Virus record (IMG/VR): IMGVR_UViG_2851976983_000002
Direction: 5' to 3' (one strand)
Source of the DNA: a virus
Taxonomy: Monodnaviria > Loebvirae > Hofneiviricota > Faserviricetes > Tubulavirales > Inoviridae
Length of the DNA: 29,483 nt
The number at the start of each line of letters is the position of its first letter. Within the stretch, counting starts at the first letter, position 1. Both the position numbers and the translations under genes were made by a program. This document shows, in pieces, positions 1-2,677 of this stretch. A model generated the notes under the pieces. The model was not told where the DNA came from and did no database searches. It saw only the letters and a list, made by a program, of their open reading frames with translations.

Positions 1-174
1 TTAACTGATGAGTTTCTGTTTTATTCGCTGTTTTTTCCTGCCAGTGAGCTTCCTTATCTTCAGCGCAACAGGAAAAATCACTCCGGCAAACAACAGGATA
101 GCCACGCCAATCGCAGCGCCACCTATTATGTGCTTCATCAGCAGGTCTAATATGATCTCACTCCAGTTGTTCAT
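1..174 (-). CDS. Small single-pass membrane protein (57 aa) with basic C-terminal tail; toxin-like or exclusion-like accessory protein
   Basis: Start at ATG 174..172 preceded on the minus strand by GAGGGGAAGA Shine-Dalgarno; glycine-rich hydrophobic helix IIGGAAIGVAILLFAGVIFPVAL then KIRKLTGRKKQRIKQK. The 132-aa track ORF is rejected as an N-terminal extension. Confidence 0.45.
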   Translation of the reverse strand: MNNWSEIILDLLMKHIIGGAAIGVAILLFAGVIFPVALKIRKLTGRKKQRIKQKLIS

Positions 175-243
175 TCTTCCCCTCATGCTTTTGTTTTTTA
201 AATGTCCATGTAACGAAGTTGAATCGCCCTTAATCCAGTCGTA

Positions 244-323
244 CCGCACCGCAGCAGGTTGGAGGCGAAGAAGGACGACGGGAGGAGGACGCCGACAACG
301 ACAACCTGCGAGGAGCGGAGCGC
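244..323. other. Conserved purine-rich element (GGAGG-rich about 40-nt loop) closed by inverted repeat GCAGGTTG/CAACCTGC (254..261 with 302..309)
   Basis: Core gaaggacgacgggaggaggacgccgacaacgaca is identical in variant B, where flanking sequence is otherwise unrelated. Copies at 8514..8593. Confidence 0.4.
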
Positions 324-362
324 CTGCATTAACATCAGAGAGCGATGTGTTACAGGCCGGGA

Positions 363-390
363 GAAAAACCCCCGTCTTGTAACACGGGGG
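363..390 (-). terminator. Rho-independent terminator for the minus-strand regulator transcript (identical copy at 8633..8660)
   Basis: Stem CCCCCGT/ACGGGGG (369..375 with 384..390), 8-nt loop, then a T-run on the minus strand (A-run 364..368 on plus). Confidence 0.5.
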
Positions 391-476
391 TAGAGTCAAC
401 GGAAACTCAAGGGTTTCCAGTTAAACCGTATCCTTTCGATCCTTCGCGGGTAGTCTGCTGAATGCAGGAAAAGGGA

Positions 477-692
477 TCACATTGCCTTTTTTTTCTTAAG
501 TTCTTCTTTGCTTATTAGATCTTTCACCGCATCATCTAAGTAGTTGTCTATTAAGTGGTTTACTATCTCTGATGGTTTTAGTAGCTCACCTGTTTTATTA
601 CCGATTTCCAGCACTCTTCGTTTTAGCTCCAGTTTTCTGTTTTCGTTAATCCTTACGGTTGTGTCTCCGCGCTTTGTTTCTTTTTTCATCAA
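477..692 (-). CDS. Small DNA-binding regulator (71 aa), possibly ribbon-helix-helix; positional analogue of the phage repressor (RstR-like role)
   Basis: Divergent from the rep operon; AGAGGT Shine-Dalgarno upstream; beta-strand/helix/helix pattern TVRINENRKLELKRRVLEIG...SEIVNHLIDNYL. Confidence 0.5.
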   Translation of the reverse strand: MMKKETKRGDTTVRINENRKLELKRRVLEIGNKTGELLKPSEIVNHLIDNYLDDAVKDLISKEELKKKKAM

Positions 693-826
693 AATTTACC
701 TCTATGTCCTTTCAATAGAAGGTGATTATTCCATTTTTTTTACACCCGCATAGCGCATGCGTATTTACAACACGTGTTAAATGTGATTATGATGCGCGCA
801 TGCGGTAAATATATTGCGGTGCAAAC
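693..826. promoter_or_regulatory. Divergent promoter/operator region of variant A (copy at 8963..9096)
   Basis: Two copies of palindrome GCGCATGCG (753..761, 796..804) and a 10-bp perfect palindrome AACACGTGTT (769..778), AT-rich, between divergent genes. Confidence 0.4.
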
Positions 827-1024
827 ATGTCTCACGAGATTGTTTACTACGATTACATTCCTGATTATGGCGTTAATGCCTGCATTGATGGTGAATGGGA
901 TTTTTTCAGCTCGTTTAATGAGCTGGTCATTGCATGCTTAGAAACAATCGGGGATGACTTCGTTCTGGTATCTGTTGCACTGCCTTCTGGTTCATGGGTC
1001 GGTTATCAGGAGACTGTTTGCTAA
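827..1024 (+). CDS. Hypothetical acidic protein (65 aa), translationally coupled to rep
   Basis: ORF stop overlaps rep start (TAATG at 1022..1026); no recognisable motif. Confidence 0.4.
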
Positions 1025-2220
1025 TGAAGCCGGTTCAGGAAACCATACGTCACGTCTTCATAGACCATCTTGCATTCACTTTCCCCATGAGTGAGCTGAA
1101 GAATCTTGAGACTTTCGACGGCGCTATTCAGTTCTGGCGTAAGTATGGTTCCATGCCGCGTCTGCGTGATTTTCTGCCCGGTCGTGATGCCTTCTTTCGT
1201 GATGTGGTTGATCCTGAGACTCGATGCTGGGTTCCTGATGATGCGGAGTCAGATAAAATTTGTAGCGGCATTTCTGGTGATAGAGCGTTTATTGAACAGC
1301 ATATTGAACAATATAATCAGGCTGTTCAGGCTGCGTATTTGCATCGTCTTAAAATCTGGTTATCCAGTGCTTTTGGTTTGAGTATGGGACCGGAGCGGGA
1401 TCGTGGTGGCTTTAATTATCGCTGTTCTGCGCCATTATTTTCTGACGATGGCGGTAATAATTTACATGGCTTTGTGTTCTGGGGTGGAAACAATAACACG
1501 GTATATATACAGATTTCCGGTCTGGGATGTGCTCATGTATTTAGTGGCACTGAGCCTCAGGATGTATTCAAATGGTTGAAACATCTCAATATTACGACAC
1601 TTAAGCGTATTGATTTGGCTGTTGATGATTTCGATGGTGTTTTTACGTGTGACGCTGCTGTTCGCGATCATCGCTCTGGCGCGTTTTATAGTGGTAAGGG
1701 ACCGCGTCCGGGTTTTTCGAACTCCTGTAAATGGGATGGTCGCGCAGTATTAAAGCAGGAGATGTACACGTTTGGTTCCCGGCAATCGCGTGTTTACTGG
1801 CGTATCTATAATAAAGCGCTTGAACAAAAAGTCAGTGGTACGTGGAATCGTTCTGAGGTCGAGCTTAAAGGGGTTCCTGTTGATGTACTGCTTGATATTG
1901 CCGGTTATTTTACGGGATTGTGTGATTATGCAGCACAAATCAATCCAGCTAAACCACGCAAGTTTAATCCTTATCGTCCTGATTTAGCGGACGAAAAAAA
2001 GGCAATTAATGCACTGGAACATAATGTTCACTGGTTACGTAAGCAGTGCTCTAAATCTGTTGCAAAGCTATTTCATCTTCTCGGTAATGATTACGAGGCG
2101 GTCTTTACTGCTATTGTCAGACATGAGGATATACAGGATGAGAAGATTAGATTTTCAATACCGGATGTTTATCGGCAGGTAATTGCAGGTAAATTCTATA
2201 ATCGTTCAGTTCCATTTTAA
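1024..2220 (+). CDS. Rolling-circle replication initiation protein (gpII/RstA-type, Rep_trans-like)
   Basis: 398 aa; motifs [13 protein letters not shown] and [14 protein letters not shown] recalled as Rep_trans signatures; first large gene after the divergent regulator. Start taken at the internal ATG 1024. Confidence 0.75.
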
Positions 2221-2229
2221 GGTGTGTTT

Positions 2230-2565
2230 ATGCAGAATCAGTCATTAAAAATCGTATTTGTTCAGTTTGGTAAAATTGAAGATTCAGATACTGAATGGGC
2301 TAATGCTCAGGCTTTATCTACTGAATATTCATCATCTCAGGCAGCGGGACGTGCATCTGCGGGATTTGCGCCGGGTAAAATTGATGTCAGCCCGGATAAT
2401 AATCACTCTGTCGGTTTGCGTCTTCGTGATGATTTAAATTTTGCCCGTGAGCAGGGTGGGTTTTATATTGAAATTATTCCTGCTTATGGGATGAAATCGA
2501 AAAAAGGCAGTATGGTGAGCGTTATTTCTGACTATGAGTTAATTTATCCTAAGCGAAGTAAATGA
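2230..2565 (+). CDS. Hypothetical protein (111 aa) in the gene V/RstB position; possible ssDNA-binding protein
   Basis: Position immediately after rep with AAGGTG Shine-Dalgarno; no gpV motif recognised, so function is by position only. Confidence 0.35.
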
Positions 2566-2575
2566 TTTTTGAAAT

Positions 2576-2677
2576 ATGCTCACGACTGAATTTTTCGTTC
2601 TTATTCTCTTTGGTGCTGTGCCAGTGCTGATATTTTCACTGGCTTTTATTGGCGGAGTCATTACGGGAAGGCGTTAA
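2576..2677 (+). CDS. gVII-like small hydrophobic minor coat protein (33 aa)
   Basis: MLTTEFFVLILFGAVPVLIFSLAFIGGVITGRR; no own Shine-Dalgarno, 10 nt after the upstream stop (coupling as recalled for Ff gene VII); not in the ORF track because under 60 aa. Confidence 0.45.
   Translation: MLTTEFFVLILFGAVPVLIFSLAFIGGVITGRR

Follow-up and report, generated by a model that had tools for sequence, protein, structure and literature searches.

Filamentous phages of the CTX type integrate as single-stranded DNA (ssDNA) through an attP hairpin, described for CTXphi of Vibrio cholerae (PMC4246890) and proposed in the same form for YpfPhi (PMC4266046). Elements of this type, which include YpfPhi and CUS-1, integrate irreversibly and rely on rolling-circle replication from tandem copies (PMC4246890; PMC4266046), with replication for CTX-type phage DNA initiated at one prophage's origin and terminating on reaching the identical origin of the neighboring copy (PMC4246890). 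Heteroimmunity among CTX phages has long been known, as have hybrid genomes derived from tandem elements (PMC4246890). A published case that follows the same logic as the locus described here is the UPphi901 group of Lineavirus-like, dif-integrating phages of Enterobacterales: gII and gV of UPphi901 are >85% identical to those of YpfPhi and the remaining genes <20%, and tandem arrays can contain non-identical copies (PMC7307601). Replication modules also vary greatly on conserved inovirus morphogenesis modules, at least as PMC13595969 summarizes Roux et al. 2019. The locus considered here is a stretch of 29,483 nucleotides (nt) assigned to Inoviridae (IMG/VR record IMGVR_UViG_2851976983_000002; 'the window' denotes the whole of it), in which two prophages with dissimilar replication cassettes share one morphogenesis module. 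It represents a clean further instance of the module exchange known from filamentous phages, in an apparently undescribed group.

Self-comparison of the window resolves four head-to-tail units in the order A-A-B-B. Unit A (8270 bp; 1-8270) is repeated exactly at 8271-16540 (self-BLAST, 100%), and unit B (8022 bp; 16541-24562) is followed by a second copy that runs from 24563 to the window end, with 16541-21461 and 24563-29483 matching at 0 mismatches over 4921 nt. Each unit combines a rolling-circle initiator of the Rep_trans or gII type with a compact gene order, the family-supported long open reading frames (ORFs) all lying on the plus strand except for one small regulator per unit; the units are filamentous (inovirus) prophages of E. 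coli. The best explanation, to which as a whole a probability of roughly 0.8 is given, is that the window is the interior of a tandem array in which two phages, related but distinct, are present.

The sequence-only reading had proposed that unrelated replication and regulation modules were here joined to a shared morphogenesis and attP module, and alignment of the variable regions bears out the first half of this. A 1-2587 and B 16541-19171 have only one block in common by blastn, Smith-Waterman, tblastx and BLASTP (236-326 versus 16636-16723, 86.8%, at blastn word size 11; A 211-345 versus 16612-16742, 78.7%, at word size 7). With the block masked, the best local score was 17 on the forward strand and 14 on the reverse, where shuffled sequences averaged 14.8 and reached 19 at most, and tblastx of the variable regions recovered the block and nothing further, so that the additional similarity that would count against a swap was looked for across both regions and not found. 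Gene contents are likewise as described, with different regulators, different Reps (398 versus 375 amino acids, aa) and different proteins in the gV position, none of these three pairs giving a significant BLASTP match. Database searches of each Rep, which had been called for, place them in different families. The A initiator (1024-2220, plus strand; the ORF extends to 408 aa from 994) scores 77.3 bits against Rep_trans (PF02486; cut-off 29.6) and aligns with CTXphi RstA over 92% of its length at 33% identity (E 2e-51), with homologues in Xenorhabdus and Vibrio carrying the name RstA. The B initiator (17246-18373, plus strand) belongs to the Ff/If1 gII family, with 70.8 bits against PF05155 (cut-off 25), a borderline 21.8 bits against PF05144 (cut-off 21.7) and 48% identity to If1 gII. 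Alignment of the two Rep family profiles by hhalign gave a probability of 1.3%, matching only at a short (I/V)YNK(A/S) motif. The two initiators thus appear unrelated by every sequence test used, and may share a fold at the superfamily level.

Searches of other genomes support a module swap in both directions. The window's morphogenesis module is found in other E. coli genomes with four replication cassettes, A, B, C and D. Cassette C encodes a second gII-like Rep (55% aa identity to that of B) together with its own gV and an HTH_3 repressor. Cassette D encodes a 660-aa Phage_GPA endonuclease and a DUF2726 protein, and is found in Sx181-0-1 in a single prophage between hipA and fimbrial genes. 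At least three initiator families (Rep_trans/RstA-like, gII-like and Phage_GPA) are therefore seen on this chassis. A variant of B, termed B' (JNE112863, L001, 20001-22611), has a Rep 98% identical to that of B and an unrelated HTH_3 repressor, the replaced segment being B unit positions 283-705 (window 16823-17245); immunity cassettes thus swap independently of the Rep. In the opposite direction, RIVM_C037794 (L010) has cassette A (A 363-2569, 95% nt identity) joined to another morphogenesis module, in a tandem pair with a 94%-identical attP (1021-16937) that adjoins a LysR gene, not hipBA. This second backbone, present in 31 complete genomes, encodes a 561-aa g3p, a DUF2523 protein, a 352-aa Zot and a 419-aa secretin; its identification with CUS-1 was considered and dropped, as no classic O18:K1 strains are among its listed carriers. 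Divergence of A and B in situ, without any swap, was rejected because the initiators are of different families and close relatives of each cassette occur on other backbones. Cassette exchange is very frequent among these phages. The swap itself therefore stands, but the proposal that it was recent is not supported, given a shared module that differs at ~3% of sites and is itself mosaic.

The joins between cassettes and backbone differ from case to case. On the right, A and B become homologous from A 2588 / B 19172 onward. In A the breakpoint falls between 2587 and 2588, and alignments place the join in codons 2-4 of the gVII-like 33-aa ORF (A 2576-2677, starting MLTTEFF; B 19160-19261, starting MSVAEFF; both plus strand), within the first codons as originally proposed. 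Cassettes B, C and D have a leader and the MSVAEFF start in common; since the leader from 19115 is shared with C and D, the B form of the join is the ancestral one. Similarity of B and D begins at window 19115, that of B and C at window 18869, and similarity of A to the RIVM_C037794 phage ends at ~2569-2572. Right joins that are specific to each cassette point to several independent, largely illegitimate recombinations that respected functional boundaries, and not to a single site-specific mechanism.

A different route has to be weighed on the left side, where the similarity of A and the window's B ends 2 nt past the attP hairpin. The Davis-Waldor route, or Xer recombination between members of a mixed tandem array, could have generated a hybrid, with XerCD or rolling-circle read-through at the junction of two prophages setting one join at attP/dif, in which case the swap would be a direct product of tandem integration and not of general recombination. 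That edge fits such an origin, as do the mixed arrays here and in JNE112863, and an A-specific duplicated 3' segment stops where an XerC arm would start; hybrid CTX genomes from tandem elements are, moreover, documented (PMC4246890 and PMC7307601, each with reference to Davis and Waldor 2000). Against it, the segment 1-326 of A, which includes the conserved block as well as a hydrophobic ORF of 57 aa, is present at ~86% identity in other B-type phages (L002 and L003) and in C and D, which makes the attP-adjacent edge secondary in this B. In place of the A-like small-ORF segment, the window's B units have 69 nt of their own (16541-16609, also 24563-24631), and no E. coli match to the B module begins before query position 70. 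The edge next to attP is thus a peculiarity of the window's B copy. The cassette A found on the other backbone begins at A 363 and not at attP, the right joins are different for every cassette, and termination by read-through requires the same origin and Rep in neighboring prophages, which A and B do not have. The attP/dif route is accordingly considered unlikely. Under the preferred explanation of independent recombinations, the exchangeable cassette in the strict sense begins only downstream of the conserved block, close to the regulator terminator around A 363, given that L002 and L003 carry the A-like 1-326.

Cassette A has the layout of a small replicon under the control of a divergent regulator. 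The regulator (71 aa; 477-692, minus strand; phrog_2503) lies in the rstR position, divergent from the Rep operon, and is followed by a terminator-like hairpin at 368-391 on the minus strand (8661-8638 in the second copy). It had no match in Pfam, NCBIfam or PDB sequences. An AlphaFold2 (AF2) model with a predicted local distance difference test (pLDDT) score of 84.9 has an extended N-terminus and helices at residues 16-33 and 39-69, and the top Foldseek matches are of the ribbon-helix-helix type (a TCP domain, Reg576, ParD and ParB of pCXC100), all with E>1. The earlier description of this protein as ribbon-helix-helix-like is compatible with the model and draws no significant support from Foldseek; it is possibly a small repressor of that class. 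The control region between the divergent genes (693-826) contains a promoter-like TTTACA-18-TATGAT at 764-793 (9034-9063 in copy 2), identified by promoter scan. Two GCGCATGCG palindromes flank this site (743-804) and are candidate operators, read from the sequence. Downstream, a 65-aa ORF (827-1024, plus strand; phrog_3104, E 3.5e-25), annotated in RefSeq homologues, overlaps the Rep start (TAATG). A 111-aa protein in the gV/rstB position (2230-2565, plus strand; 113 aa from 2224) matches only phrog_14411, of unknown function, with no match in Pfam, NCBIfam or phage tblastn searches; its single-sequence AF2 model (pLDDT 42.6) is unusable. The 57-aa ORF that abuts attP (1-174, repeated at 8271-8444, minus strand; hydrophobic with a basic tail; WP_001409659.1 in homologous RefSeq loci) has a weak Fst-like (type-I-toxin) match (E=0.039). 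It is present in A, C, D and other B-type phages but absent from the window's B units, and belongs to the family backbone.

Cassette B is built from different parts. Its candidate repressor is a helix-turn-helix protein of 91 aa (16832-17107, minus strand; the ORF is extendable to 17377), which matches phrog_4441 (1.4e-18) and phrog_638 (9.4e-18) and falls below the cut-off for Pfam HTH_26, CI_repr and HTH_3. The control region upstream of the B Rep (17108-17245) holds at least three GTAACAT repeats together with inverted copies (17160-17225), also candidate operators. The initiator is followed by a gV-type ssDNA-binding protein of 120 aa (18386-18748, plus strand; phrog_1199), whose match to PF02303 (28.3 bits, cut-off 25) covers residues 67-101 only. 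An extra ORF of 101-109 aa (18807-19136, plus strand), without a family match in Pfam and PHROG scans, has no counterpart in A and shares its 3' end with cassettes C and D.

The attP site is identical in A and B and lies at 8173-8270, 16443-16540 and 24465-24562 (plus strand). It consists of an XerC arm (AGTGCGCATAA, 8173-8183), an 11-nt central region (8184-8194) and an XerD arm (TTATGTTGAAA, 8195-8205), followed by a GC-rich stem-loop and an inverted second dif-like site that extends to 8270. As ssDNA, 8170-8269 is predicted to fold into one long hairpin with a bulged center (-43.7 kcal/mol, z -11.2), and the site is on this basis read as a CTX-type hairpin of two inverted dif-like sites. 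Host XerC and XerD would recombine this hairpin, in the single-stranded genome, with dif; no integrase or recombinase family was found among the ORFs scanned. The outcome can be seen in L002, a metagenomic contig that carries a single B-type prophage with the same Rep protein as window B. At its left junction, after hipA, GGTGCGCATAA is joined to the phage central region (GGTGCGCATAA followed by TGTGTTACACG...), and at its right junction phage AGTGCGCATAA followed by TGTATATTATGTTAAAT constitutes an intact E. coli dif, beyond which lie yneL and fimbrial genes. Exchange on the XerC side of chromosomal dif, with dif rebuilt at one end, is thus observed in this relative, and not in the window itself. 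These junctions place the real unit boundaries at the XerC crossover (8183/8184, 16453/16454 and 24475/24476), ~87 nt upstream of those given by the sequence-only reading. No E. coli dif was found in the window at up to 3 mismatches, as expected for the interior of an array, which holds only hybrid attP junctions. Judged from identical units in other genomes, the array is probably located at chromosomal dif.

Those genomes show the same phages alone and in arrays. The A unit is 100% identical to prophages of the enterotoxigenic E. coli (ETEC) strains E24377A, 503025, 503440, 503829 and TW10573. Strain 503025 has an A-type array of at least five copies after hipB, some with fragmented ORFs of the sort typical of long-read errors, and JNE112863 has a C-C-B'-B'-B' array that adjoins hipBA/dif. 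Single copies are represented by A in E24377A and the B-type prophage of L002. A circular 'plasmid' record of 9613 bp (L013, pJNE25-005_3) is also the genome of a related phage, interrupted by ISEc31 and with its ORFs fragmented; it could represent a replicative form, or such a form assembled with many errors. Megablast of both units against a phage collection gave no match, a pI scan of species-representative genomes recovered no relative, and no description of this phage group was found in literature on the JNE strains and the E24377A filamentous phage; the backbone apparently lacks a close characterized relative and represents an undescribed group of E. coli inoviruses.

In the proposed mechanism, each cassette, positioned between attP and gVII, would act as a self-contained control and replication unit on the common backbone, to which it would have been joined by independent recombinations, illegitimate on the gVII side. 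Initiators of different families imply different replication specificity, and A and B probably differ in origin specificity. The two phages have different repressors, operators and initiators, and presumably different origins, and on this basis heteroimmunity and independent replication are expected; their unrelated repressors and initiators and their coexistence in one array both point this way. Heteroimmunity would let B superinfect a host of A and integrate beside it. Virion DNA of A would then be produced from A1 to A2 and that of B from B1 to B2, and inter-copy rolling-circle production would account for the presence of each phage in two identical tandem copies. Neighboring A and B have no common origin, so hybrids would not form by read-through. 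B would have arrived after A if newcomers use the rebuilt right-hand dif as in CTXphi. This order is uncertain; YpfPhi can also insert between copies (PMC4266046).

Several points weigh against this account or limit its reach. The window includes no host flank, so that integration at dif is deduced from relatives. The motif (I/V)YNK(A/S) occurs in both initiators, leaving room for very distant kinship rather than strict non-homology, the placing of the A regulator in the ribbon-helix-helix class lacks significance, and a motif search of the window for an f1-type nick site was negative. Perfect repeats in long-read assemblies can, moreover, give wrong copy numbers. Pressed further, this last point becomes the proposal that the A-A-B-B order or the copy numbers are an assembly artefact, the true state being another arrangement or an episomal form. 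Perfect 8-kb repeats are indeed hard to assemble, and both the fragmented ORFs of some 503025 copies and the circular 9.6-kb related record in JNE25-005 are in keeping with it. However, the A-to-B junction (16135-16610) reads through with the sequence expected of a true attP junction, analogous mixed arrays occur in an independent complete genome, and the module swap follows irrespective of copy number, which leaves such an artefact with very little probability.

The shared morphogenesis module (2588-7864, plus strand) is collinear with B 19172-24466 at 96.9% identity. The sequence-only reading had described the two as collinear and near-identical through attP. The collinearity holds, but near-identity is not uniform: A carries ~290 bp more than B, and identity drops to 84-89% in the final ~300 bp ahead of attP. 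It reaches ~100% over 3957-5556, with lower values of 93-95% toward the 5' end of gIII and 95.5-97% toward the 3' end of gI. After gVII follow gIX-like (2680-2838), gVIII-like (2859-3134; B 19443-19718), gIII (3190-4518), gVI-like (4521-4880), gI/Zot (4888-6144) and gIV (6154-7374), all on the plus strand, and then non-coding DNA. The N-terminal domain of g3p matches PF05357 (40.5 bits), the pI/Zot assembly ATPase matches PF05707 (38.4 bits, cut-off 20.3) and phrog_1675, 'protein I of M13' (5.8e-36), and the pIV secretin matches PF00263 and a pIV PHROG. The ORFs of 33, 52, 91 and 119 aa are candidate coat genes by position, size and hydrophobicity, with family matches to orphan PHROGs only.

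Since RS1-type satellites accompany CTXphi in arrays (PMC4246890), and one common virion gene set would in principle permit parasitism, one unit might be a defective or satellite element whose virions are supplied by the other. This is highly unlikely, as both units have complete and open gVII-gIV gene sets with no frameshifts in either, which sets them apart from an RS1-like satellite without morphogenesis genes, and as A occurs alone in E24377A and a B-type phage alone in L002.

The suggestion that the two phages share virions is nearly, and not fully, right. No residue differs between A and B in pVI, one in pIX, two in pIV and nine in pI, and pVII differs at three, all in codons 2-4. Differences are found at 16 positions in pIII, mostly in its N-terminal domains, and at five in pVIII, both in exposed N-terminal parts. 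All five pVIII differences (E31D, G32D, N43S, Q44K and D45A) fall in the predicted exposed N-terminus of the mature protein. In a comparison of the window with L001, L002 and L011, central gIII (window 3340-4134) emerges as a mosaic hotspot of the family, ~25% divergent in C, D and B' phages; here window A is closer to window B than window B is to the B-type phage of L002. The alignments suggest mosaicism of the gIII receptor domains and hint at exchange between co-resident units.

Between gIV and attP, the 3' non-coding region of A (7576-8172, plus strand) contains the ~290 bp found only in A: 7576-7864 is a diverged tandem copy of 7865-8174 (73-84% identity), and each copy has one terminator-like hairpin (7772-7803 and 8074-8111). 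B has a single copy (24178-24466). The first copy of the duplicated segment ends ...ACAACGCCAG, exactly where the second runs on into the XerC arm. From its sequence, the A-specific duplication looks like the relic of an old prophage-prophage junction from which attP was lost.

The one element common to the two variable regions is the conserved block (211-345 and 8481-8615 in A; 16612-16742 and 24634-24764 in B; plus strand), which is GC-rich and structured. Its predicted ssDNA folding is weakly stable relative to shuffles in A (z -2.05) and more so in B (z -3.79), and it is kept with every cassette type in relatives. An Rfam search matched no family, the block included. Its persistence on backbones with all cassette types marks it as a candidate Rep-independent cis element, which might be a packaging signal or a minus-strand origin.

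Among characterized phages, CTXphi offers the fullest parallel. It has in common with the window phages a hairpin attP of two inverted dif-like sites, restoration of dif on the right by crossover on the XerC side, tandem arrays, and a cassette layout of divergent repressor, initiator and small protein, the A initiator being the RstA relative described above. The replacement of the repressor between B and B', independent of the Rep, resembles that among CTX rstR types, for which immunity cassettes are reported to swap in the same way (Kimsey and Waldor 1998, as cited in PMC4266046). The window phages differ in residing in E. coli, in having their own secretin (pIV) and no toxin genes, in morphogenesis proteins that are only distantly related, and in exchanging whole replication cassettes of different initiator families and not just the repressor region. 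YpfPhi of Yersinia pestis and CUS-1 of E. coli O18:K1:H7 are likewise enterobacterial elements of ~8-9 kb, integrated at dif with inverted XerCD sites, present in tandem arrays of 2-4 copies, and equipped with an RstR-like repressor and variable ORFs beside attL (PMC4266046); the comparison is by description only, and the window is not placed in that group. No classic O18:K1 genomes are among the matches listed.

The UPphi phages are ~70% identical in aa sequence to IKe/I2-2, whereas the window pI is only ~30% identical to Ff-type pI; this value and the lack of a megablast match in the phage collection indicate a backbone different from that of UPphi. Cassette B resembles If1 and Ff (f1, M13 and fd) in its replication genes, a Rep with PF05144 and PF05155 being directly followed by a PF02303 gV-type protein. 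Ff and If1 are non-integrating and have no repressor, and the window lacks their f1-type nick-site motif.

Replication modules are thus exchanged freely on a conserved chassis in this group, with three initiator families on backbones that are ~97% identical. The 8-kb repeats at E. coli dif can mix probably heteroimmune phages, and typing of prophages by Rep only or by coat genes only misclassifies them. The A phage is identical in several ETEC genomes and the group may matter for strain biology, though no cargo or toxin genes were seen in the window phages. A broader proposal, tentative and on present evidence rather doubtful, is that mixed arrays at dif serve as a recombination workbench, with a fixed chassis of attP, cis block and virion genes accepting pluggable cassettes while gIII segments are exchanged in situ. 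If this is true, the combination of chassis and pluggable replicon would provide a natural and tractable system for defining the minimal cis and trans elements that make a filamentous-phage replicon interchangeable.

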